Positions 877 through 48,278 are shown, counted from the first letter of the stretch. The stretch is DNA of 64,000 nt from an uncultured bacterium (GCA_945920215.1 CAMEJM010000009.1:332-64331); one strand, 5' to 3'. Numbers and translations: made by a program. Notes: generated by a model from the sequence alone, not told the origin.

Positions 877-3786
877 TTATGCAAATTCTACCGTGATAGT
901 CGTTGCGCGGTACCTGCTGCCCTTTAGGGCAATCTCGGTGCTGTACGCATTGTAATTTGTGTCGTAATCGGTAAAGAAGATGACTACCTCCGAGATGGTT
1001 TCCTCCCCGTCTATTATGAGGGTCGGCTCGGTATCGTCTGTACCTGTATAGGTGGTGTAGGTGTATTCCGTGCCGTCACACAGAATCTTGTCGTCGATCT
1101 TGCCATAGTCGGACACGGTAATTTGGACCGTCGTCGAGCCGCCCGACTGGGATACTTTCGCCGTCCCGGGGTTTTCCGAGATCGTCACGCCGCCCGATGG
1201 CAAGTCCGTGTTCATGACATAGTCGACGCCCTCGTACGCGAACATCATGTAGTAGCGGAAATAGTAGTCCTGCAAGGGGAGATTTTCGAGAACGGCATAG
1301 GTGTCCCGCCCGATGCAGTCGTAGGCGCCGGTGTAAACGGTTCTGCCATCGGCATCGGTTTCGAAACCGTTGTAAATGAACGCGTTATAGTAGATACGGC
1401 TGTCGTCGCTGGAGAAGCCGATTTTGCGGTAGAGATTGATGGTGCCGTCGTCGTTATAGGTCACGACAGCGTCTCCCGGATTGACACAGAACATATACGG
1501 GGGGATGTAATTGGTGGACGCGTCCGTCTGAGAGATGGTATAGGTCGACGCCGCGCCGAACGGGTTGCCCTCCTTGTCTACCGCCTGAACGGTCAGGGTA
1601 GAACCGGTATTCCACGGAACCTCGTCGAAATAGTATTCATCCATCGGTTCGATGAGGAGGTCGATTCCGTTTACGGTATCTTTGATAGAGATGGAATAGT
1701 TTGACGGAATCTGATAATCAAACTTCATCACAACAGGGATCGTTGACGCACCCTGTGAGATATCGGCGCTAACGCTCGTCACCGAGAAACGGTAGTCCAT
1801 CGCGTACGCGCTCGCCCCCGTGCCGAGGGTATGCGTCGCACCGTCCGATTGGTTGTCTCTAAACGAGAGGGTTGCCGTCACCGAGACATTCCCGGGCGCG
1901 CCCGTGAGGTTGTCCAGAATCACGACGCCGCTCGCTTCGATGCCGTCGATCTGTTTGACGGAGGTCGTGATACCGTCGCCGGTATCCATCTCCATGGACA
2001 GCATCAAAGACGCATTCGCGTGGTCATAGACCATGTCACAGGTGTAGGAGAGGGTGAAATACTGCCCGTTGAACCCGTAATCGGAAGATAGTTGAACGCG
2101 CGGGACGCAGAACGGAACCCCCTCTTCGATATGCGTGGCATATTCCACTTCGCGGTTCGGGAAGGAGCCGCAGTCGTAGTACGCGAAGCGCAGGGTATCG
2201 AGCCCCGTCCAGTCGTCAATATCAATGGTCGCTTCACCCTGTCCCGCGTATTCTCCAAAGACCGCACCGGCGCTGTTGGTGACTTGTAACTTGTAGTAAT
2301 ACGTGCCCCCGACATCGGTTGTAAATTCGGGGCGTACCGATACCGTGATATGGTCTGCGTGGTACGCGACAGTCGCGTTTTGCGGCAGGACCCTCGTATA
2401 GGAGCCGAGGAACTCCTGCGTGGCGGTGTAGGACTTCACGGTGCTTGTGTAGACGGGCACCTTCTCGTGCGCGTCACTCAGGGTGTAGAGTATGTACTCA
2501 TAGGTCGCAACCCCGTAGTAGGTGCTGCCCTCGACGGTATAGGTCATTGCCTCGGGGTCTATCGAGAGGGTCGCCTCGTGTGACGCGCAGAGCGGGTTGC
2601 CCATGGCGTCGTATTGATTGAAGTAAGCGCCAAAGGCGGTGTCGGGGTCATACGCGGTCAGCGTGCCGCTGACCGAAATCCGATCGGGCATATTGACGAG
2701 GGTTTCCGCGCTCTCATCGACCGCAAGGAGGGGCGCTTCCGCCCGATCCCAATCCGCGGGATAGGTGAGGGGGATCTCTCGGGAGAACAACACGTTTGCC
2801 TCTTGTCCGTCGGGTGTTTCGGTCTCCCCGACGAGATAGAGATACAGGGTGTCGGCAGTGATGCCCGGAACCGTGCCGCGGAAGAATCCTCTTTCGTCCG
2901 GCGCGTCGCTTTCGTATACCACATTCTCAATATGGCGGAGGTCGGTTTGTTCCGCCGTGCAGAGATAGAGCGTGGGACAGCTGTATTTGTGTTCGTAATC
3001 CGAGAGGTAAACGGAGTAGTTGACCGTGGCGGTTTCGGTGACGTCGTCGAAGAAGATCGCATTGTTGAGTTCGTCGTAGACCCCTCGTGCGTCGCTTGTC
3101 TGCGGCGTCGTGACGGTGTCCGAATAGACGGTGGAACTGCTCCCGAGCGATGGATTCTTGCAGATGAGATTGTACGAATAAGAGGTGTTCGGTGTGAGCC
3201 CTGTGACCAAATAAGTGTGTGTCCCGTCTCGCAGTCGGATGGTTTCGGTCCCGGCTTCGGTTGTGACTTCCAAGAGAAAGTCGTCCGCGGTGAGACCGAA
3301 AAACGAATCGTCGGCTTTGAGCACTTCGCCCATGTCGACCGTCAGGGCGAAGAAGTCCATCCCCGTGTCAAGTCCGAGGAATGCCCCCAGTCCCGCGAGA
3401 ATGCCGGCAGAGGCGACCACAAAGACAATGATCGCCGCCACGGCTATGGTGGAAGCCCCGGCAGCCCCTGCGGCGCTCGCGGCGCCGGCGTGTGCCGCCG
3501 AACTCGCGGCGGAGGTGGATGCCGCCGGTGTCGGGGTCGGAGAGGTTTGCGATTGGGTGAGTTTCTCGTATTGCCGCTTAAGGTTTTCCGTGTCGGTTTT
3601 TGCGGTGCTCTCGTTTTTCTTCGCCTGTTCGTCTTGCCCGCGATATGCCTCCGGGATCGGGATGACTTCGACAGGAGACTTCGCCGTTTCGGATGCGTAG
3701 TACTCTTCCGCGGAAAACTGTTTGTATTCGGAGAATGTGTTTTCTTGCTTCGCGTGGTAGAATTCGCCTGTGTCCACGGTCTTCAT
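877..3786 (-). CDS. large membrane-anchored surface protein with repeated Ig/FN3-like modules (function unknown)
   Basis: 969-aa ORF. It has a charged N-terminus, a Pro/Thr/Ser/Ala low-complexity linker, one TM (IAVAAIIVFVVASAGILAGLGAFLG), then about 830 aa of beta-rich sequence with an FN3-like motif (YLVTGLTPNTSYSYNL). It ends 18 nt upstream of the mscS start. Confidence 0.7.
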   Translation of the reverse strand: MKTVDTGEFYHAKQENTFSEYKQFSAEEYYASETAKSPVEVIPIPEAYRGQDEQAKKNESTAKTDTENLKRQYEKLTQSQTSPTPTPAASTSAASSAAHAGAASAAGAAGASTIAVAAIIVFVVASAGILAGLGAFLGLDTGMDFFALTVDMGEVLKADDSFFGLTADDFLLEVTTEAGTETIRLRDGTHTYLVTGLTPNTSYSYNLICKNPSLGSSSTVYSDTVTTPQTSDARGVYDELNNAIFFDDVTETATVNYSVYLSDYEHKYSCPTLYLCTAEQTDLRHIENVVYESDAPDERGFFRGTVPGITADTLYLYLVGETETPDGQEANVLFSREIPLTYPADWDRAEAPLLAVDESAETLVNMPDRISVSGTLTAYDPDTAFGAYFNQYDAMGNPLCASHEATLSIDPEAMTYTVEGSTYYGVATYEYILYTLSDAHEKVPVYTSTVKSYTATQEFLGSYTRVLPQNATVAYHADHITVSVRPEFTTDVGGTYYYKLQVTNSAGAVFGEYAGQGEATIDIDDWTGLDTLRFAYYDCGSFPNREVEYATHIEEGVPFCVPRVQLSSDYGFNGQYFTLSYTCDMVYDHANASLMLSMEMDTGDGITTSVKQIDGIEASGVVILDNLTGAPGNVSVTATLSFRDNQSDGATHTLGTGASAYAMDYRFSVTSVSADISQGASTIPVVMKFDYQIPSNYSISIKDTVNGIDLLIEPMDEYYFDEVPWNTGSTLTVQAVDKEGNPFGAASTYTISQTDASTNYIPPYMFCVNPGDAVVTYNDDGTINLYRKIGFSSDDSRIYYNAFIYNGFETDADGRTVYTGAYDCIGRDTYAVLENLPLQDYYFRYYMMFAYEGVDYVMNTDLPSGGVTISENPGTAKVSQSGGSTTVQITVSDYGKIDDKILCDGTEYTYTTYTGTDDTEPTLIIDGEETISEVVIFFTDYDTNYNAYSTEIALKGSRYRATTITVEFA

Positions 3787-6100: not shown

Positions 6101-6937
6101 TTACGCTTCGACTTCCAAGCCGTCATAGCCGACGAGGAAGCCGTACTTCGCCGCTTCTTCGCTCAGTTCTTCGTGATCGTGACCGTGTAATTCATTATGC
6201 GAAAAATGCGTCACAATGAATGTTGTCTGATCGTCCGCAAGACCTTCTTTGAGAAGGCGATCTTTCATCAGCACATCGGTACGAAGGCTCATGTGACCAT
6301 GGTCCCAGCCCGTAGGAGCATACGTGCCCGTACAATCAAGCGACACAATATCGAAGCGTCCCAAACGCTTCATCTCATCGATCACCTGATTTGTGAACAT
6401 ACCGGTATCATGCGCATACAAAATGCGCTTTTTCTCTTTGTCTTCCACCGCATAAATCACGGGTGTGGATTCGGGACCGTGGTCTGCACGCAGGACAAGC
6501 ACTCTGTTTTCTCCAAGCTGCAACAGATCGCCGGGTTTCACTTCCGTTATACGCGCGCGGGAACTGTCGGCAGCGGGAGACGAGAAAACTTCTTTCATTT
6601 TGTCGTACGCCGATCTTGCCCCGTAAAAATCAATCTGCGAAACATTGTGCGAGTAGTGCGGCTCGGCAAACATGATCAGATCTTCCGGATACAAATGATC
6701 GGAATGGCTGTGCGTGATCAGGCAATACTTGATCTTCGTCCAATCGAATCGGTATGTTTGGTAATGCGCCACGGTGTCGGCGTTGAAGTCAAACAGGATC
6801 TCTTCGTTCAAAAGCGCCTGTGCGCGCGTGCGCAGATTCTTTCCGCCGAGAAGCATCGCCCTTTTACAAGATTCGCATTGACAGAACAGCGCGGGAATGC
6901 CCTCGTATGCCGCTGTCCCAAAATACTTCATTTTCAT
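6101..6937 (-). CDS. MBL-fold metallo-hydrolase
   Basis: Contains the HxHxDH motif (ITHSHSDHLY) and N-terminal Cys pairs (CQCESC) as in PhnP-like MBL enzymes. I chose the MKMKYFG start at 6937. The ORF extends to 7006. Confidence 0.75.
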   Translation of the reverse strand: MKMKYFGTAAYEGIPALFCQCESCKRAMLLGGKNLRTRAQALLNEEILFDFNADTVAHYQTYRFDWTKIKYCLITHSHSDHLYPEDLIMFAEPHYSHNVSQIDFYGARSAYDKMKEVFSSPAADSSRARITEVKPGDLLQLGENRVLVLRADHGPESTPVIYAVEDKEKKRILYAHDTGMFTNQVIDEMKRLGRFDIVSLDCTGTYAPTGWDHGHMSLRTDVLMKDRLLKEGLADDQTTFIVTHFSHNELHGHDHEELSEEAAKYGFLVGYDGLEVEA

Positions 6938-7077: not shown

Positions 7078-7674
7078 TTATATTTCCATATCGTCGATCA
7101 AATGCTGCTGCGCCAGCGAACGCAGAAGAGCAATCTCATTTCGCACGCTCCGCTCGAGGCGTGCGTCTGTGCGCCATCCGAGGCATTGTTCCGCCGTGTG
7201 CTCGGTATAGCCGAACACCTGTATATAGTGAGGTAAAAACAGTTTTGCGAGCGCAAGACTGCGGCGCATATGAAACGGCTCCGTGATGACGGCGACGCTT
7301 TTCACGTCGGTCACATTCCCACGGGCATAGATCGCTCCGAACGAGCAAATCATATTTCCCACGGTATCCCTTGCGTGCGGCTCGTCCACCACGGCGTCGG
7401 CGGGGACACCCAGTGCGAGCAGCCTCTGCCGCATGACCGCGCATTCTGTTTGGGTCGGATCGGATACGGCGGCGCCGGATGCCACGATCCGTGCCGTACC
7501 GCCGCGCAAATAGTACGACGCCGCGATCTCCGCACGAACACACGCATAAGTCGGCTCCGTGCCAAGCAAAAACGCATAGTCGGCGTGCCGCAGGACTTCG
7601 TTGCTCTCGTCAAATAAAAGCGCCTTGATCTGCGCATCCGTCAATTGCTCAAAATAGGCTTCCGATATACGCAT
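7078..7674 (-). CDS. YdcF/ElyC (DUF218) family protein
   Basis: 198 aa. DUF218 pattern: GGTARIVASG...ECAVMRQRLLALGVPADAVVDEPHARDTVGN. Confidence 0.7.
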   Translation of the reverse strand: MRISEAYFEQLTDAQIKALLFDESNEVLRHADYAFLLGTEPTYACVRAEIAASYYLRGGTARIVASGAAVSDPTQTECAVMRQRLLALGVPADAVVDEPHARDTVGNMICSFGAIYARGNVTDVKSVAVITEPFHMRRSLALAKLFLPHYIQVFGYTEHTAEQCLGWRTDARLERSVRNEIALLRSLAQQHLIDDMEI

Positions 7675-8154: not shown

Positions 8155-8913
8155 ATGAAAGCGGTTCATACGGTCATTTCATGGTGCTTTTTGCTTTATT
8201 TTGTCATTCTGTTTGCGGAACGGGCGCAAAGCCTGATCCGTATCTGTCTTGCCTCGGAGACGCGCCTTTTGGGCACGGCGTTTGACGCATTTGTCAATAT
8301 CACGACCATTCTTTCGCTCGGTGCCTCGGTCGTTCTGCTCGCCTGCCTGAACGGCGGGTTCTGGAAGTCTTTGTTCCATTCGGGCGCGCAGGTGAACGAA
8401 TCCGTGCTTTGCATCACCGCCGGGGTCATTCTAATCGCCGGTATGATGCACACCGAATATACCGTTGCGCCGATTCAGTTTGCCGCTTACGGGATGCTGA
8501 TTCTCGCCATGGTTCTGAAAACGGTCTCCGTGCAGAGCACCGTTGCGCACCCCGCGTTGCTTTGGCTGTCGCTGGTCTATCTGACCGCGCTTTCCATGGC
8601 GATTCCCGTGATGTATCGCTCTCAGATCACCTATGCCGCCTTGTTCCACGTGATCGAGGCTGTTGCCGCCTTGGTGCTGGTGGCTGCGTTCACCTTCCTT
8701 TTGCGCCGGGTATTCCTCGGTCAGGGCGAGAATCTCTTTCTCTGGCTCCCGATCCTTCTTGCCGCCGTGCTTGACGGCGTGCTTCTTGCCCTGCGCTGGC
8801 AGGAAAAGGTCAACACCTTTGTCCTGATCTTTCTGATTGCCGCCTGCGTTCTGTTCGCCGTCGGAAAGACCTTTGCCGCCGTGCTGGCAAGACAGACGGG
8901 AACGCAGATCTAA
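8155..8913 (+). CDS. polytopic membrane protein (unknown function)
   Basis: About 7 hydrophobic helices. I chose the start at MKAVHTVISW, which has GGGAGA 10 nt upstream. The ORF track start (8038) coincides with the -35 box. Confidence 0.55.
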   Translation: MKAVHTVISWCFLLYFVILFAERAQSLIRICLASETRLLGTAFDAFVNITTILSLGASVVLLACLNGGFWKSLFHSGAQVNESVLCITAGVILIAGMMHTEYTVAPIQFAAYGMLILAMVLKTVSVQSTVAHPALLWLSLVYLTALSMAIPVMYRSQITYAALFHVIEAVAALVLVAAFTFLLRRVFLGQGENLFLWLPILLAAVLDGVLLALRWQEKVNTFVLIFLIAACVLFAVGKTFAAVLARQTGTQI

Positions 8914-8962: not shown

Positions 8963-9101
8963 GCTCGGACGCTCAAACTCCGCCCCCGGAGAAGCCGCAA
9001 GCGCCTTTTCCGCTATGCGGCACGCGGGCAAAGCCGCGCGCATTTTATGAAGAACAGAAAAGAAAATTGTCCCCTATGACGCTGCATTTCAAAAATGCCA
9101 C

Positions 9102-9130
9102 TTGAATATACAATTGTAATGTGATAGAAT
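9102..9130 (+). promoter_or_regulatory. strong sigma-A promoter of the RHH-SPFH-TIR operon
   Basis: TTGAAT (9102-9107), 17-nt spacer, TAGAAT (9125-9130), in a locally AT-rich patch. A second TAGAAT copy lies 5 nt downstream (TAGAATACTATTAGAAT), giving a direct repeat that could be an RHH operator. Confidence 0.7.
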
Positions 9131-9194
9131 ACTATTAGAATCTAAAACACAAAAAGAGTTTCAAAGAATCAATCACTATGAAGCGAGGTATGTG

Positions 9195-9380
9195 ATGGAC
9201 GGAAAAAAACTGACCATTGTCTCCCGAAAGTACAGGGGAGATTCCGTGGTAATCTCATCGCGGCTGGCAAGCGATCTGCTGAAAAAAATCGACGCCATTG
9301 CCGAGCAAACCGGCAGAACGCGGAATGAAATCATCCAGATCAGCCTGGAATATGCTGTGGACAACATGGAAATCAAGTAA
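9195..9380 (+). CDS. ribbon-helix-helix (CopG/Arc-type) DNA-binding protein
   Basis: 61 aa. A beta-strand segment (VVISSRL) is followed by two helices (ASDLLKKIDAIAEQTGRTRNEIIQISLEYAV). GAGG lies 7 nt upstream of the ATG at 9195. Confidence 0.7.
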   Translation: MDGKKLTIVSRKYRGDSVVISSRLASDLLKKIDAIAEQTGRTRNEIIQISLEYAVDNMEIK

Positions 9381-9394
9381 TACGGAGGGGCAGT

Positions 9395-10645
9395 ATGGCA
9401 ATCGCGTATATTATCAAATACGAGGGGAACAACGCCACGTTTGTGTGGAAGCACCCCGCAGAGGACTTTAACTGTCTGACGCAGCTGATCGTCCACGAAT
9501 CGCAGGAAGCGGTATTCTTCATGAACGGGCAGGCACAGGACGTGTTCGGCCCGGGGCGGTACACGCTTGAAACGCAGAATATCCCTAAAATCGGAAAGCT
9601 CCTCAATCGGGCGACCGGGGACCGAACCCCCTTTCACTGCGAGGTTTACTTTGTCAACAAGACAGAGCAGATGTGCATCAAGTGGGGGACCGACTCCCGC
9701 GTGCAGTATGTGGAGCCCACCTACGGCTTCCCGATCTCGATCGGCGCGTCGGGCGAGATGACCCTGCGGGCGGAGGACAGCCTGAAGCTGCTTGTGAAGC
9801 TGGTCGGCACCGAGGCGTTTCTCGGACAGCAGCAACTGACCTCCTATTTCCGCGCTTTTCTGATGACAAAGGTGAAGACCTATATCGCTTCGGTCATCAA
9901 AGCGCAGAAGATTGACATTTTTGAAATCGACGAGCAATTGCAGCCTCTTTCGGAGGCGCTGAAAGGACTGCTGCGCGGCGATTTCGCAGATTACGGCATC
10001 CGGCTCGAACGCTTCTTTGTGATGAACATCGTCAAACCCGACGGCGAACCCATGTACGAGAAGTTCAAATCCCTGCACTTCCGTCAATACGCCGACATCG
10101 CGGAGGCAAAGCTGCAACAGACGGTGGGCGTGATCAACGCGCAGACCGACGCGCAGAAAACCGTGATTGCCTCGCAGGCGCTGGCAACCAAGCGCGCGCA
10201 GGAGGGCTATACGTATCAGCAGGAGCGCGGCTTTGACGTTGCTTCCGAGGTGGCGCGCAACGAGGCGGTCGGGCAGTTTACCAACATGGGCGTGGGGTTG
10301 GGCACCATGGCAGGCGTCGGCGGAGCCGTCGCAGGTATGGTCGGAGGCGTGATGACCGGCGCCGTGGACGGCGCCATGCAGGAGCCCCCAAAACCGGCGG
10401 CAAATACCGCTTGCCCGAAATGCGGCGCGTTGTTGCCCGCCGGGGCAAGGTTCTGCCTTATTTGCGGGGAGCAGGTCGCCGAGAAAAGCGCAGGAGCAAT
10501 ATGTCCCGACTGCGGAAAACCCGTTCCGACAGGGGCAAAGTTCTGCCCGGAATGCGGGCACCGCTTTGCCGCGGTTTGCCCGAAATGCGGGAAAGAAATT
10601 CCTGCCGGGGCGAAATTCTGCATGGAGTGCGGTGAGAAACTGTAA
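9395..10645 (+). CDS. SPFH/Band-7 family protein (YdjI-like 'virion core protein' type) fused to a Gly-rich hydrophobic segment and three C-terminal zinc ribbons
   Basis: The N-terminal 290 aa match the YdjI-like SPFH pattern (IIKYEG....FVWKHP.EDF...QLIVHESQEAVFF.NG...FGPGRY.L.T.N.P). These are followed by GVGLGTMAGVGGAVAGMVGGVMTG and then 3x CPxCG-N9-11-FCxxCG. GGAGGGG RBS. Confidence 0.85.
   Translation: MAIAYIIKYEGNNATFVWKHPAEDFNCLTQLIVHESQEAVFFMNGQAQDVFGPGRYTLETQNIPKIGKLLNRATGDRTPFHCEVYFVNKTEQMCIKWGTDSRVQYVEPTYGFPISIGASGEMTLRAEDSLKLLVKLVGTEAFLGQQQLTSYFRAFLMTKVKTYIASVIKAQKIDIFEIDEQLQPLSEALKGLLRGDFADYGIRLERFFVMNIVKPDGEPMYEKFKSLHFRQYADIAEAKLQQTVGVINAQTDAQKTVIASQALATKRAQEGYTYQQERGFDVASEVARNEAVGQFTNMGVGLGTMAGVGGAVAGMVGGVMTGAVDGAMQEPPKPAANTACPKCGALLPAGARFCLICGEQVAEKSAGAICPDCGKPVPTGAKFCPECGHRFAAVCPKCGKEIPAGAKFCMECGEKL
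10412..10633 (+). repeat. three tandem zinc-ribbon coding repeats
   Basis: CPKCGALLPAGARFCLICG / CPDCGKPVPTGAKFCPECG / CPKCGKEIPAGAKFCMECG (aa 340-413 of the SPFH protein). Confidence 0.85.
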
Positions 10646-10658
10646 GGAGATTTGACAG

Positions 10659-11366
10659 ATGAAAATCAACAAGTATTTCAAATACTACGGCATTTCATGG
10701 GTTCTGAGTCTGATTCTGTTCCATGTGATCGCTTTTGTGACGCCGCATGAGATCGGCGGTATCAACCGCCTTGAGAAGCCCGCGTTCTGGATCGGCTACG
10801 CGCTGCTGCTGCTCGCGCTCATCGGGCAACTGATATGCAGCTATCTGTTCCTGCGGGACGATAAAAAGGAAAAGATATTCCTGCGCTTTGCGGTGCTGCG
10901 GGTCGGCGCGGTTTCCCTCGCTGTTTCGGTTCTCATCGGCGCGGTGTTCTTCCTGTTGCCGAAGCTGCCCGCCTGGGCGGCGTCCGTCATTGCGTTACTT
11001 GCCCTTGTCTTTTATATCTGCGGGGGCTTGCGCGCCGTTGCCGCAGAAGAAGCCGTGACCGAAATCGGCGAGCGCGGCGACGGGAAAACGAGTTTCATAC
11101 ATACGATTACGGCGGAGGCAAAGGCGCTGACGGGGTATGCCACGCCCGCTACCGAGGACGCCGCCAACCGCGTTTACGAGGCGCTGCGGTACAGTGTTCC
11201 CGCCTCGAAAACCGAAACCGCCGATATTGAAACCGAGATATTCGACGTGTTTGCCGCCTTTTCGGAAAATGTGAAAAACGGCGAAGAGGAGCCGGCAAAC
11301 GAGGCAGCGCGCCGTCTTGTCTCTCTGATTGAGGAACGCAACGCGAAGAGCAGACTTTCCCACTGA
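10659..11366 (+). CDS. 4-TM membrane protein with helical cytoplasmic tail; paralog of 32148..32822
   Basis: 235 aa. AAGGAG RBS. It shares the motifs FWI.YA..LLAL..Q, ALRYS.P and a C-terminal LVS..ERN with the ORF at 32148..32822. Confidence 0.7.
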   Translation: MKINKYFKYYGISWVLSLILFHVIAFVTPHEIGGINRLEKPAFWIGYALLLLALIGQLICSYLFLRDDKKEKIFLRFAVLRVGAVSLAVSVLIGAVFFLLPKLPAWAASVIALLALVFYICGGLRAVAAEEAVTEIGERGDGKTSFIHTITAEAKALTGYATPATEDAANRVYEALRYSVPASKTETADIETEIFDVFAAFSENVKNGEEEPANEAARRLVSLIEERNAKSRLSH

Positions 11367-11431: not shown

Positions 11432-14400
11432 ATGGCAATTTTCAAATGTAAAATGTGCGGCGGCTCGCTGGAGGTCAAACAGGGGGCGAGCGTGATCGAG
11501 TGCGCGTACTGCGGGACGAAGCAGACCCTGCCGAAGCTTGAGGACGAGCGGCGCGCGAACATCTATGACCGCGCCAACCATTTCCGCCGGGCGAACGACT
11601 TTGACAAGGCGATGGCGCTCTATGAGCAGATTCTCACGGAGGATCCGAGCGACGCCGAGGCGTACTGGTCGATCGTACTCTGCCGCTACGGAATCGAATA
11701 CGTCAAAGACCCGGTCAGCGGCAGGCGCGTGCCGACCGTCAACCGGATGCAATTGACCTCTGTCCTCGCGGACGAGGACTACAAGTCCGCGCTTGCGCAC
11801 GCCGACGGGTACCAAAGGGGCCTGTACGAGGCGGAGGCAAAGGAGATAGATGGGATCCAGAGGGGAATTCTCGCCATTTCACAGAAAGAAGAGCCGTTCG
11901 ACGTCTTTATCTGCTACAAGGAGACGGACGCAAGCGGGGAGAGAACGCGGGACAGCGTGCTTGCCAACGACCTCTATTACGAGCTGACGCACGAGGGATT
12001 CAAGGTGTTTTTCTCGCGCATTACGCTGGAGGATAAGCTGGGGACGGAATACGAGCCGTACATATTCGCGGCGCTGCAATCCGCGCCCGTGATGGTGGTG
12101 CTGGGGACAAAGGCGGAGCATTTCAACGCGCCGTGGGTGCGGAACGAATGGAGCCGGTATCTGGCGCTTATCCGCGGCGGCGCAAAAAAGACCTTGATTC
12201 CCGCTTACCGCGATATGGACCCCTACGATCTGCCGGACGCGTTCTCGCACTTGCAGGCGCAGGATATGTCCAAACTGGGCTTCATGCAGGACCTTGTGCG
12301 AGGCATCAAGAAACTGATCCGCGGGGAGGCGCCGCAGAAATCCGCCGACGTCAAAGAGGAAGCGGCGCCGTTTCCGCTTTCAGGCGAATTTCAGTACATG
12401 AAGCGGGCGCACATTTATATTGAAGACGGCGATTGGGAATCTGCCGACGAGTATACCGAGCGCGCGCTGGACGTGGATCCGGAAAACGCCAACGCATATC
12501 TTTTGAAACTGGCGGTTTCTCTGCATCTTGACAGCGAAGAAAAACTGTTGCAGCACTGCCGGTCCATTGCCGACAACCCGAACTATATCAAGGCGCTGCG
12601 CTATTCCAAGGGGAAACGGCACGAACAGATTGCCGCGTATGAGACGCAGATACAGAAGAACATCAAGGACGAAACGCGCAACCGAATTGTGCGCGAGGCC
12701 CTGGCATATGCGGAGCGCAGGAATGCCACCGAGCAGGAACTTGAAGGGGCGCTGAAAAACCTCGGCACACTGCGCGATTGCGAACAGGCAGAGGACGCGC
12801 GCGCCAAGGTGCAGGCAGCCTTGAAACGGGTGAGGGGCGAGAATGCCGCCCGAAAAGAAAAAGAGCGGGAGCAGATCTATGCGCGCGCACAGGCGCACAT
12901 GAAGAATCTGAAACGCTATTCGGATTATGAAAGCGCCGTCACCCTTTTTTCACAGCTCAGCGGTTGGCGGGACGCCGACGCGCTCCGCGCGCAATGCGAG
13001 CGGGAACGCGCGAAAATCGAAAAGGCGAGAAAAAGGCGCACATGGATCATCGCCGGAGCCATCCTTTTTCTGACCGTTCTTGCCGTGATCATCACCTGCG
13101 TGGCGGTGAGCAGCTACCGAAAGAGCGCCAAAGCGCAGCTGGTGTATGAGAAGAAGTACGGCGAAGTGATGATCACCGGATACAAGGGGTATCTTTCGTC
13201 CAAACTGGAAATTCCGTCCGTGATCGATCAATGCCCGGTGACGGACATCGGGAGCGGCGCGTTTGAGGGATGCAAGCGTTTGACCTCCGTGACGATACCC
13301 GGCAGCGTTGTGGATATCAGAAGCAACGCGTTCGCCGATTGTACCGCTCTCAAAAGCGTCACCATCGAGGACGGGGTTGAGAGAATCAGGGACGGTGCGT
13401 TTTCCGGCTGTACAAAACTGACCGAAGCGGTCATTCCGGACAGCGTGACGGAGATCGGAAAAAACGCGTTTGCCGCGTGTACGTCCCTGACCTCCGTGAC
13501 CATCGGCTCCGGTGTCGGGAGCATTGGCGACGAGGCGTTTTCCGGCTGTTCGGCGTTGACCTCCGTGACGATTCCGGACAGCGTGACCGACAGCGGGACT
13601 TATGTGTTCAAGGATTGCACGGGTATGACCGCCGCGGTCATCGGAAACGCAGTCACGCTCATCGACAGCGGTATGTTCGAGGGTTGCACAGCACTGACTT
13701 CCGTGTCGTTCGGAGAGAGTGTGAATGAAATCGGTTCCAATGCGTTCTTTAACTGCGGGAGTTTAACGGAGGCGATCCTGCCGGACGGCGTGACAGGTAT
13801 CGGGGACAGCGCTTTTTCGGGGTGCATAGGTCTGAATCGCATTGTCATCCCGAACAGCGTCAAAAGCATCGGAAAGGATGTGTTCGCGGGGTGCACTGCG
13901 ATTCGGTATGCCGCCATGCCGGCAGGGGCGATTTCATCCGTTCCCAAAATCAGCCTGCAAACCGCGGTGATCGGCGGCAGCGGCGGTATTGGCGACCGTG
14001 CGTTCTATGATTGCGGGGCTTTGACTTCCGTAACCGTTGAAAACGGTGTGACGAGCATCGGGGACCACGCGTTCTATTATTGCATGAATCTGACGTCGCT
14101 GACCCTGCCCGACGGCGTGACAAGTATCGGTGACAGCGCGTTTTATTACTGCATGAATCTGACGTCGGTGACTCTGCCCGACACTGTGACAAGTATCGGT
14201 CAGGATGCGTTTTATGGCTGTGCAAGTCTGACTTCCGTGACAATTCCGAAGAGCGTGACGTACATTGGAATTGGTGCGTTCAACAATTGTTTTGATCTGA
14301 CTTCCGTGACATTTGAATATACAGACGGTTGGTATCGGTATGAAAGCGATGCAAGCGGCACTTCCTCTTACGGTGAGGCGGTGTCGGTTACAGACGCGGC

Positions 14401-14458
14401 GGAAAACGCGACAAATATGAGTTTTGCCTATCCACAATGCTACTGGAAGCGTTCCTGA
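11432..14458 (+). CDS. zinc-ribbon / TPR / TIR domain protein with a single TM helix and a C-terminal BspA-type leucine-rich-repeat ectodomain
   Basis: 1008 aa. AGGAGA RBS. The domain order was read directly from the translation (see sub-features). Confidence 0.9.
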   Translation: MAIFKCKMCGGSLEVKQGASVIECAYCGTKQTLPKLEDERRANIYDRANHFRRANDFDKAMALYEQILTEDPSDAEAYWSIVLCRYGIEYVKDPVSGRRVPTVNRMQLTSVLADEDYKSALAHADGYQRGLYEAEAKEIDGIQRGILAISQKEEPFDVFICYKETDASGERTRDSVLANDLYYELTHEGFKVFFSRITLEDKLGTEYEPYIFAALQSAPVMVVLGTKAEHFNAPWVRNEWSRYLALIRGGAKKTLIPAYRDMDPYDLPDAFSHLQAQDMSKLGFMQDLVRGIKKLIRGEAPQKSADVKEEAAPFPLSGEFQYMKRAHIYIEDGDWESADEYTERALDVDPENANAYLLKLAVSLHLDSEEKLLQHCRSIADNPNYIKALRYSKGKRHEQIAAYETQIQKNIKDETRNRIVREALAYAERRNATEQELEGALKNLGTLRDCEQAEDARAKVQAALKRVRGENAARKEKEREQIYARAQAHMKNLKRYSDYESAVTLFSQLSGWRDADALRAQCERERAKIEKARKRRTWIIAGAILFLTVLAVIITCVAVSSYRKSAKAQLVYEKKYGEVMITGYKGYLSSKLEIPSVIDQCPVTDIGSGAFEGCKRLTSVTIPGSVVDIRSNAFADCTALKSVTIEDGVERIRDGAFSGCTKLTEAVIPDSVTEIGKNAFAACTSLTSVTIGSGVGSIGDEAFSGCSALTSVTIPDSVTDSGTYVFKDCTGMTAAVIGNAVTLIDSGMFEGCTALTSVSFGESVNEIGSNAFFNCGSLTEAILPDGVTGIGDSAFSGCIGLNRIVIPNSVKSIGKDVFAGCTAIRYAAMPAGAISSVPKISLQTAVIGGSGGIGDRAFYDCGALTSVTVENGVTSIGDHAFYYCMNLTSLTLPDGVTSIGDSAFYYCMNLTSVTLPDTVTSIGQDAFYGCASLTSVTIPKSVTYIGIGAFNNCFDLTSVTFEYTDGWYRYESDASGTSSYGEAVSVTDAAENATNMSFAYPQCYWKRS
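11897..12316 (+). other. TIR domain (aa ~156-295), candidate catalytic Glu239 at 12146-12148
   Basis: FDVFICYKETD (betaA), GFKVFFSRITL (betaB), IFAALQSAPVMVVLGT, NAPWVRNEWSRY. The W...E lies where NAD-cleaving TIRs carry the catalytic glutamate. Confidence 0.8.
13043..13117 (+). other. single transmembrane helix (aa 538-562)
   Basis: KARKRRT-WIIAGAILFLTVLAVIITCVAVSSY-RKS. The positive cluster lies on the N-terminal (TIR) side. Confidence 0.75.
13184..14314 (+). repeat. about 16 tandem 23-aa BspA-type LRR units
   Basis: Recurrent pattern IP.SVT.IG..AF..C..LTSVT. Units at 14048-14116 and 14117-14185 are about 83% identical at the DNA level (my hand count: 57/69, including an 18-nt identical run). 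Confidence 0.85.
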
Positions 14459-14590
14459 CAGAGAGAAAGAGCATCGGTATGACGTGACGGCGATTCAGGT
14501 CGCACACGTCGGGCGGCTTATCGGCGCGGAGGCGGGGAGCCCGCTTTCGCGCTTTTCGTGCGCCTATGCCGCAGTGTGCGGGGGAAGGAC

Positions 14591-48191: not shown

Positions 48192-48278
48192 GCGGGTGTG
48201 GCGGAATTGGCAGACGCGTAAGATTCAGGTTCTTATGGTCGCAAGGCTGTGCAGGTTCAAGTCCTGTCACCCGCACCA
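48192..48278 (+). tRNA. tRNA-Leu (anticodon CAG), CCA encoded
   Basis: GCGGGTG acceptor pairs with CACCCGC. Anticodon stem TAAGA/TCTTA with loop TTCAGGT. Long variable arm GGTCGCAAGGCTGT. T-arm GCAGG TTCAAGT CCTGT. Ends in ACCA. Confidence 0.9.

Follow-up and report, generated by a model that had tools for sequence, protein, structure and literature searches.

Domain Architecture of the TIR Protein

The DNA analyzed here, a 64,000-nucleotide stretch from an uncultured bacterium (GCA_945920215.1, CAMEJM010000009.1:332-64331; hereafter, the window), carries at nt 11432-14458 an open reading frame (ORF) for a putative TIR receptor, a 1008-aa protein that Pfam, hydropathy and motif checks describe as a single-pass membrane protein. 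All window features are on the + strand unless noted. The ORF opens with ATG, has the sequence AGGAGA 7 nt 5' of its start, and is the last in a run of four genes whose other products are a ribbon-helix-helix (RHH) protein, an SPFH protein and a protein with four transmembrane helices (4-TM). From N- to C-terminus, the TIR protein comprises a zinc ribbon, a tetratricopeptide repeat (TPR)-like motif, the TIR domain, helical/TPR repeats, one transmembrane helix and approximately 16 leucine-rich repeats (LRRs) of the BspA type. A sequence-only reading of the window had proposed this order of domains, and the Pfam and hydropathy analyses bore it out in every detail. The peptide motifs it quoted (FDVFICYKETD at aa 156, GFKVFFSRITL at aa 189, APVMVVLGT at aa 218 and NAPWVRNEWSRY at aa 232), the KARKRR cluster and the Glu239 codon all sit where it had placed them.

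We modeled aa 1-330 with AlphaFold2 (AF2) from an alignment of 51 family sequences (mean predicted local distance difference test score, pLDDT, 83.4). The model contains, in order, a four-stranded zinc ribbon, three TPR-like helices, a beta-hairpin, two helices and a five-stranded alpha/beta domain. The zinc ribbon (C6, C9 ... C24, C27; nt 11447-11512), whose four cysteines are invariant in 65 family members, is modeled as four short strands within aa 2-32. It is followed by a TPR-like helical pair at aa 45-84 (nt 11564-11683), recognized by Pfam models TPR_16/TPR_14 and by matches to consensus TPRs in the PDB. Together with a conserved beta-hairpin and the helices that extend to aa 152, this pair makes up a compact pre-TIR domain with pLDDT values of 88-97. 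After the TIR domain, a second TPR (aa 322-352; Pfam TPR_2/TPR_1) leads into a charged, helical and coiled-coil-like spacer that runs to aa 530 (nt 12395-13021, TPR included). Charged residues and glutamine (E/K/R/D/Q) account for 43% of aa 356-535, which contain a single proline, and the length of the spacer differs between homologues, with the transmembrane helix placed anywhere in aa 420-660.

The region distal to the helix matches the Pfam LRR_5 (BspA-type) model with E=1.6e-103 in three stretches that start from aa 604. Read in 23-aa frames, aa 594-961 resolve into approximately 16 repeats (nt 13211-14314), one of them irregular, and the array, predicted to be extracytoplasmic, includes 12 exact [AG]FxxCxx[LMI] cores.

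The TIR Domain and its Conserved Glutamate

Pfam assigned aa 158-282 to TIR_2 (E=7.2e-10; 39.8 bits versus a cutoff of 28), a profile present in 56/56 of the family members scanned. Foldseek comparisons of the aa 1-330 model with the PDB returned only TIRs as top matches (target-normalised TM-scores of 0.6-0.73), among them AbTir (7uxu; 0.73), Hydra TRR-2 (4w8g; 0.70) and SARM1 (6zfx; E 4.9e-5), with BtTir, Roq1, MyD88 and the SPARTA TIR also in the top 10. When a profile of the family TIR region was compared with solved structures, the best match was the TLR15/TLR2 TIR (7ylf; 3.7e-5); a PDB sequence search with aa 1-330 found only designed TPRs and one marginal TIR from a Toll-like receptor (TLR). 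By profile and by fold, the domain (aa 156-295, nt 11897-12316, predicted to be cytoplasmic) is a genuine TIR, as the sequence-only reading had claimed. None of the TIR models in PADLOC (ThsB, TIR-SAVED, TIR-NLR, RT-TIR, bSEFIR) matches the window protein, and its TIR therefore represents a separate clade. Among NCBIfam models, Thoeris-III ThcB4 matched only below threshold (23 bits versus a cutoff of 220).

Glu239 (codon GAA, nt 12146-12148) lies in a W235-x-x-x-E239 motif on helix alpha-C, the canonical position of the TIR glutamate. In a weak profile alignment to the flax L7 TIR (7vu8), W235 and E239 coincide with W and E in WCLmEL, the motif that holds the catalytic Glu of plant TIRs, and E239 also aligns with the corresponding E of the TLR15/2 TIR. 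E239 is invariant in every family alignment along with its neighbors W235, N238, W240 and R242. The same is true of residues in the beta-A strand (D157, F159, C161, Y162, K163), the AA loop (G169, R171, T172, D174) and the BB loop (L199, E200, D201, G204, plus nearly invariant neighbors). The alignments and the invariance agree with the catalytic position previously proposed for this residue. A glutamate at this site permits catalysis but does not prove it, and we regard NADase activity as putative.

Predicted Membrane Topology

A Kyte-Doolittle scan of the whole protein (19-aa window) revealed one hydrophobic peak, at aa 537-560 (score 2.9). It immediately follows the KARKRR cluster (aa 531-536; nt 13022-13111 for cluster and helix), as in a signal-anchor, and nothing resembling a signal peptide was apparent at the N-terminus, in agreement with the sequence-only reading. 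The net charge next to the helix is +6 on its N-terminal flank and +2 on its C-terminal flank. One strong hydrophobic helix is likewise found in 103 of the 120 best full-length homologues, where it lies within aa 420-660 and consistently separates the cytoplasmic module from the distal domain; the 15-residue flanks in these 103 proteins average 6.1 K+R residues on the N side versus 1.65 on the C side. Hydropathy and this clear positive-inside signal predict an N-in/C-out (type II) single-pass topology. PASTA kinases and RsgI anti-sigma factors also use the type II layout.

The domain order, the single helix and the charge bias thus predict LRRs outside, a TIR inside and one helix in between, in reversed linear order compared to animal TLRs. 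This is the layout put forward by the sequence-only reading, and the presence of the helix, the predicted external location of the LRRs and the TIR profile match all agree with it. Its proposal of a surface-sensing TIR effector holds in part. The TLR-like layout is predicted, but approximately 35 aa separate the helix from the LRR array, which is probably covered by the cell wall or embedded in it instead of being surface-exposed; for this reason, envelope sensing is a safer term than surface sensing.

The alternative that the segment does not span the membrane, or does so with the N-terminus out, would place the LRRs in the cytoplasm and make the protein an ordinary cytosolic TIR-sensor fusion. 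The existence of TIR-LRR_5 and TIR-DUF6273 family members without a transmembrane helix lends it some substance, but a peak of 2.9 over 19 residues that recurs at the same relative position in 103/120 homologues, and with a strong positive-inside bias, is hard to reconcile with it. It is also implausible that an N-terminal half of 530 aa that binds zinc would be exported with no signal peptide, and LRR_5, DUF6273 and Flg_new domains are typically extracytoplasmic. We consider such a misassigned topology very improbable.

A Conserved Module With Interchangeable Distal Domains

The window protein belongs to a very large family that is specific to Clostridia and is found in those of the gut and rumen. 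At least 8,000 full-length homologues are among the matches listed, and a phmmer search of 1.84 billion cluster representatives with the N-terminal 300 aa recovered 4,113 50%-identity clusters at E<=1e-30, with members up to 3,073 aa long; the architecture cannot, therefore, be a product of chance. Nearly all of the top 120 full-length matches combine TIR_2 and LRR_5 and come from metagenome-assembled genomes (MAGs) of Clostridia. A query with aa 1-333 retrieved 4,181 matches, the best of which are 70-80% identical over the module and 330-580 aa long; these short proteins are soluble or tail-anchored via a C-terminal helix. Contigs sampled at one genome per species contain more than 497 stretches with the module, and their hosts belong to the Oscillospiraceae, Acutalibacteraceae, Ruminococcaceae, Lachnospiraceae, Christensenellaceae and Anaerovoracaceae. 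Members carry only the database names 'leucine-rich repeat protein' or 'TIR domain-containing protein'. The N-terminal module had no match among 50,697 phage records, indicating that it is not a phage-borne gene.

The gut and rumen habitat of the carriers, together with the known ability of some bacterial TIR proteins to subvert host TLR signaling (PMC7075850), raises the prospect of a host-directed effector of the Tcp type (TcpB/TcpC/TirS-like) that disturbs animal TLR signaling in the gut. We rejected this candidate on topology, as the TIR is predicted to be cytoplasmic and the protein has no secretion signal. The gene also resides in an operon with cytoplasmic and membrane partners, and the family occurs with equal frequency in MAGs from the rumen and from the environment. 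This leaves the proposal with next to no credibility.

Sequence conservation ends abruptly after the module. In the main subfamily (84 sequences from approximately 79 species), identity averages 80% over the first 300 residues and divergence is complete past residue ~300. Among 76 family proteins from genome loci plus the window protein, DUF6273 was the distal domain in 32 proteins with a transmembrane helix and 6 without, LRR_5 in 8 and 1, RCC1 in 6 and 1, and MORN in none and 1, respectively; no distal domain was recognized in 16 proteins with a helix and 6 without. A Pfam scan of 56 members gave a similar picture of the C-termini (DUF6273 in 30, LRR_5 in 8 and RCC1 in 5, and also MORN, Flg_new and RHS). 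DUF6273 is, thus, the commonest ectodomain and the LRRs of the window protein are a minority type. The relative closest to the window module, P0019, shares 86% identity with it; P0019 has 1,470 aa and a different, larger C-terminus made up of Flg_new plus LRR_5. This indicates that the module recombines with different distal domains.

About 10-15% of the members truly lack a hydrophobic helix, including the LRR_5 proteins P0027, P0105 and L062. The common logic of the family is, therefore, a binding domain coupled to the TIR module; in most members, though not in all, this coupling crosses the membrane. These proteins also bear on the possibility that the family consists of surface adhesins, in which an LRR, C-lectin or RCC1 domain binds host glycans, mucus or other cells, and the TIR module and the SPFH protein serve only to anchor and cluster the protein within membrane microdomains. 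LRR_5 is the adhesin repeat of BspA, and the window protein produced partial, sub-threshold NCBIfam matches to the HupY/LrrG adhesin and to Gli349. The great length of some members and their Flg_new or RHS repeats are typical of surface proteins, and SPFH proteins are organizers of membrane domains. But the helix-less members carry the same binding domains in the cytoplasm, where they would be useless to an adhesin, which fits a sensor instead. Further, BspA-like LRR surface proteins are secreted and anchored to the wall or the outer membrane, whereas the window protein, which shares with them a long LRR_5 array, has no signal peptide, sortase motif, wall anchor or stalk. Its array would be buried under the wall and is attached to a 530-aa cytoplasmic half of the signaling type. 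The invariance of a motif of the TIR active-site type and of the BB loop across thousands of proteins is also hard to explain for a pure anchor. We view an adhesin function as improbable.

The gene for P0108, an LRR-bearing member, sits at the edge of a prophage and directly follows a block of phage genes for a portal protein, a dUTPase and a methyltransferase (L002/L003 196-7936).

A Conserved Gene Cluster With SPFH and Four-Transmembrane Partners

The putative operon in the window starts with the gene for a 62-aa RHH protein of the CopG family (nt 9192-9380; RHH_1 E=7.8e-5), a putative transcriptional regulator. It is followed by the gene for a 416-aa SPFH/Band-7 protein (nt 9395-10645; Band_7_1 5.4e-39, DZR 2.7e-25, Zn_Ribbon_1 4.7e-23) that contains a low-complexity linker rich in Gly, Ala and Met and, at its C-terminus, three zinc ribbons; the hydropathy scan identified no hydrophobic segment in it. 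The third gene (nt 10659-11366) encodes the 235-aa 4-TM protein, assigned by hydropathy and with a helical tail of ~105 aa predicted to be cytoplasmic. The 4-TM protein matched no Pfam, PADLOC or NCBIfam family, its AF2 model, although confident (pLDDT 83.6), had no fold match in the PDB, and a word-index homologue search found 21 relatives only. It seems to represent a previously undescribed family whose occurrence is strictly tied to that of the SPFH protein. A consensus scan placed two overlapping sigma-70-like promoter matches (9/12 positions each) at nt 9102-9141 and a terminator-like hairpin at nt 14532-14550, after the TIR ORF; both signals are weak, and they bracket the four genes.

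We surveyed the conservation of the cluster with searches seeded by the TIR module and, in turn, by the SPFH protein. In 79 genome loci fetched by the TIR module, with neighbors found by tblastn, the SPFH gene was present in 54, the 4-TM gene in 48 and the RHH gene in 14; where at least 3 kb of flank was available on both sides, SPFH was found in 23 of 26. The reciprocal test used an independent collection of 80 metagenome loci fetched by the SPFH protein, and recovered a TIR-module gene in 60 and a 4-TM gene in 66, or a TIR gene in 19 of the 20 loci with at least 4.5 kb of flank on both sides. The genes are co-directional and usually ordered SPFH, 4-TM and TIR (one to three paralogues), with (RHH), TIR, SPFH and 4-TM as the alternative; RHH homologues head the cluster and are followed by SPFH or immediately by the TIR gene, and the gap between SPFH and 4-TM has a median of 14 nt. 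All-against-all clustering of the flanking ORFs identified no other widely conserved neighbor and, in particular, no PspA and no ThsA-like reader. By these comparisons, the TIR receptor gene closes a conserved operon of RHH, SPFH-Zn-ribbon, 4-TM and TIR genes, whose co-transcription is putative. Orphan copies of the TIR module away from SPFH do occur (three exact-protein look-ups), and had suggested a stand-alone gene, a notion that the 79-locus survey overturned.

Two or three TIR-module paralogues are arranged in tandem at many loci (L013, L014, L027, L034, L038, L048, L052, L055, L079, L081 and L004-L006). Typically, one belongs to the main subfamily (~76% identical to the window module) and one to a second subfamily (~57%). 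This arrangement hints at heteromeric pairs or at a receptor repertoire served by one SPFH/4-TM pair.

The cluster resembles the ydjGHI/samGHI system of Bacillus subtilis. YdjI/SamI has been described as a soluble SPFH protein that combines a low-complexity linker with a zinc finger at the C-terminus (PMC8581546), a layout that the window SPFH protein matches. YdjG and YdjH bring SamI to the membrane, where it restrains their signaling (PMC8581546, PMC11237479, bioRxiv 10.64898/2026.02.06.704340). In both systems, the SPFH gene is next to genes for two membrane proteins, one of which has an N-terminal zinc ribbon and a transmembrane helix: YdjG, whose gene product starts with MIISYKCPNC, consists of zinc ribbons, a domain and a transmembrane helix (PMC11237479). 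The cluster could, by this likeness, be a Clostridial counterpart devoted to envelope stress or membrane homeostasis, with the TIR protein in the YdjG role, its outer domain reading the state of the cell wall or envelope and its TIR serving mainly as an assembly or signaling scaffold in a physiological response rather than in immunity. The very tight linkage of the operon, the extreme conservation of the cytoplasmic parts, the housekeeping genes that flank the cluster in the window and the existence of tail-anchored members without an ectodomain are all in keeping with such a role. However, neither pspA nor any other conserved partner accompanies the Clostridial cluster, its 4-TM protein lacks the TPM domain of YdjH, and its zinc-ribbon protein has a TIR and a variable ectodomain rather than an NTF2-like domain. 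The invariance of catalytic-type TIR residues also counts against it. With the conflict hallmarks of the sister loci described below added to the balance, we think a homeostatic role rather unlikely.

Ectodomain Diversification and Defense-Type Genes in Sister Loci

Three sister loci (L019, L043 and L044) encode a TIR protein with a transmembrane helix and a DUF6273 domain, followed by a gene for a bAvd-like four-helix bundle, a template repeat (TR) and a reverse transcriptase. Each TR is paired with a variable region (VR) at the 3' end of the TIR gene (L019, VR 8312-8435 and TR 9026-9149; L044, VR 8424-8550 and TR 9117-9243; L043, VR 6520-6646 and TR 7213-7339). In these pairs of 124-127 nt, 18/20 (L019), 24/26 (L043) and 16/17 (L044) of the mismatches fall at template adenines. 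Such adenine-specific mismatches are the signature of a diversity-generating retroelement (DGR) that writes into the sister ectodomains, as the VR maps to the ectodomain of members with a transmembrane helix. At three or more further loci, the TIR gene is followed by an Avd-like gene. DUF6273 has been reported as a C-lectin-like target of DGRs in Faecalibacterium phages (PMC11792537, PMC10743442), and TIR-containing DGR targets have been mentioned in passing (PMC5758913). DGRs commonly diversify membrane-anchored binding proteins (PMC8144416), a point that an adhesin function would accommodate as well. Hypermutation, swapping of the ectodomain and the defense-type genes described next are, by contrast, hallmarks of conflict that set the Clostridial cluster apart from SamGHI.

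In 32 loci, an extra, unrelated ORF occupies a slot between the 4-TM and TIR genes (e.g., L082 5515-5964, L041 5408-5998, L028 5505-6011 and L044 5114-6001). The slot ORFs encode DUF2971 (Pfam; 4 loci), DUF4365 (2 loci), the HEPN protein pEK499_p136 (2 loci), and, at one locus each, SIR2_2, the PADLOC candidate PDC-S66 and a stand-alone ThsB-like TIR (L082; PADLOC 1e-24). Another PADLOC candidate, PDC-S31, which goes with the DUF2971 type, matches five slot ORFs (best, 4e-28). Further, a tyrosine recombinase (Phage_integrase, 6e-26) is encoded just upstream of SPFH in seven loci (L019, at 2419-3258, and the same recombinase cluster in L028, L044, L049, L064, L082 and L083), and serine recombinases lie nearby in others. 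This could mean that a mobile island carries the gene cluster, or that site-specific recombination shuffles its paralogues.

A Putative Envelope Sensor With TIR Output

The combination of an invariant TIR module with interchangeable or hypermutated binding domains, and with a transmembrane helix in ~80% of the members, points to a family of sensors rather than adhesins. The paralogues that share one SPFH/4-TM pair and the defense-type cargo in the operon point in the same direction. The reading we favor, and to which we would give an even chance, is that of a transmembrane ligand sensor with a predicted TIR output, probably used in biological conflict, and with the SPFH/4-TM pair as its scaffold or brake.

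In the mechanism we envision, the 4-TM protein would recruit the SPFH protein to the membrane, and the two would hold the TIR receptors dispersed and inactive, by analogy to the restraint of SamGH by SamI in B. subtilis. Binding of a multivalent ligand to the outer domain, or a perturbation of the envelope, could then cluster the receptors; candidate ligands include a phage component that reaches the membrane and macromolecules derived from competitors or the host. The clustered TIR domains would assemble via their invariant BB loops to form active sites around E239, and cleavage of NAD+, whether as depletion or as a signal, could lead to growth arrest or defense. We infer the enzymatic activity, its activation by clustering, the SPFH brake, the ligand and the biological role. 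A more specific version, which we offer tentatively and as a clearly less probable one, is that gut Clostridia maintain a receptor repertoire in which germline-swapped or DGR-hypermutated outer domains on one SPFH-gated TIR enzyme sense phages or other foreign macromolecules at the envelope, prior to or during genome entry, and respond by NAD+ cleavage.

Several observations weigh against a conflict sensor with an enzymatic TIR. The same glutamate is frequent in the non-enzymatic TIRs of TLR1/2/6/10 (PMC7075850). The topology is a prediction from hydropathy and the positive-inside rule. At ~80% identity across Clostridial families, the module is conserved far above fast-evolving defense proteins and in the manner of a housekeeping or scaffold protein, and clustering of the flanking ORFs identified no conserved downstream effector or reader of a TIR-made signal. 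PADLOC has no model for the TIR, SPFH or 4-TM protein. The window gene itself lacks the DGR and the slot genes of its sisters: no reverse transcriptase or Avd gene lies within ~10 kb on either side, and its slot is empty (65-nt gap between the 4-TM and TIR genes). The genes flanking the cluster in the window, like those at the three orphan-copy loci, are mostly housekeeping. Finally, 148 random flank ORFs from the family loci included a few strong PADLOC matches (NsnB, AbiLi, AriA, mad3) and ATPase models cross-matched one another, so that the enrichment of defense genes in the flanks, a raw count without a baseline, is suggestive only.

The likeness to animal TLRs extends from the predicted extracellular LRRs, single helix and cytoplasmic TIR of the window protein to the many alternative ectodomains carried by a conserved TIR in its family. 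Yet TLRs are type I proteins with a signal peptide, N-terminal LRRs and a C-terminal TIR, whereas the window protein is predicted to be type II, without a signal peptide and with the TIR in its N-terminal half, preceded by a zinc ribbon and TPR. Its LRRs are of the BspA/LRR_5 class rather than the TLR repeats with their LRRNT/CT caps, and it has SPFH and 4-TM partners instead of an adaptor pathway. It is very unlikely that the two architectures as a whole share an ancestor, and the resemblance is one of analogy rather than homology.

With the bacterial TIR effectors (Thoeris ThsB, TIR-SAVED, TIR-STING, SPARTA TIR-APAZ) and with AbTir/SARM1, the window protein shares the TIR fold, the alpha-C glutamate and the coupling of a sensor to the TIR, whose activity in known systems depends on oligomerization. 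The known effectors are cytosolic, whereas the window protein is predicted to span the membrane, and no ThsA-like neighbor (SIR2/SLOG or Macro), as in Thoeris, is conserved at the loci of its family. To our knowledge, every bacterial TIR immune protein characterized so far detects its trigger within the cytosol.

Multicellular bacteria have been reported to carry putative antigen sensors that are diversified by DGRs and coupled to TIR or peptidase effectors (PMC7159879, PMC10907252), and the sister proteins whose C-lectin-like C-terminus is rewritten by a DGR and whose N-terminus carries a TIR resemble them. The described sensors are, however, STAND NTPases or MoxR-vWA ternary systems, mostly cytoplasmic, from cyanobacteria and proteobacteria. 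The window family has no NTPase, is predicted to be single-pass, has an SPFH partner and is found in unicellular gut Clostridia, and the window gene encodes LRRs as its ectodomain and is not accompanied by a DGR.

A search of the full-text literature found no description of this architecture or operon. As cytosolic TIR effectors were already known, what is new is the transmembrane, SPFH-linked, receptor-repertoire form of TIR sensor-effector proteins. If the receptor-repertoire version of our reading is correct, this would be the first bacterial TIR immunity to sense outside the cytoplasm, a functional analogue of TLRs or antigen receptors. The family, with its thousands of membrane-spanning members, would add extracytoplasmic sensing to bacterial TIR biology, provide an independent and convergent example of the LRR, transmembrane and TIR logic of animal TLRs, and link a signaling enzyme to SPFH scaffolds, the functions of which are poorly understood in bacteria. 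Given the abundance of the family in dominant Clostridia of the human gut and the rumen (Oscillospiraceae, Ruminococcaceae, Lachnospiraceae and Christensenellaceae), it may also affect phage-host dynamics or NAD-derived metabolites in the microbiome. The compact four-gene operon, with an obvious position for a catalytic point mutant (E239A), makes the system directly testable.

Other Features of the Window

Rfam and tRNA scans identified nothing near the operon; the only Rfam or ARAGORN match in the 64-kb window is a tRNA-Leu (CAG) at nt 48192-48278. Approximately 2.3 kb upstream of the operon, on the - strand, lies the gene for a hydrolase of the metallo-beta-lactamase fold (Lactamase_B_2; window nt ~6101-6937, equivalent to L001 4670-5506). 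The protein has a weak match to the anti-Pycsar Apyc1 family and is probably an ordinary metallo-hydrolase.

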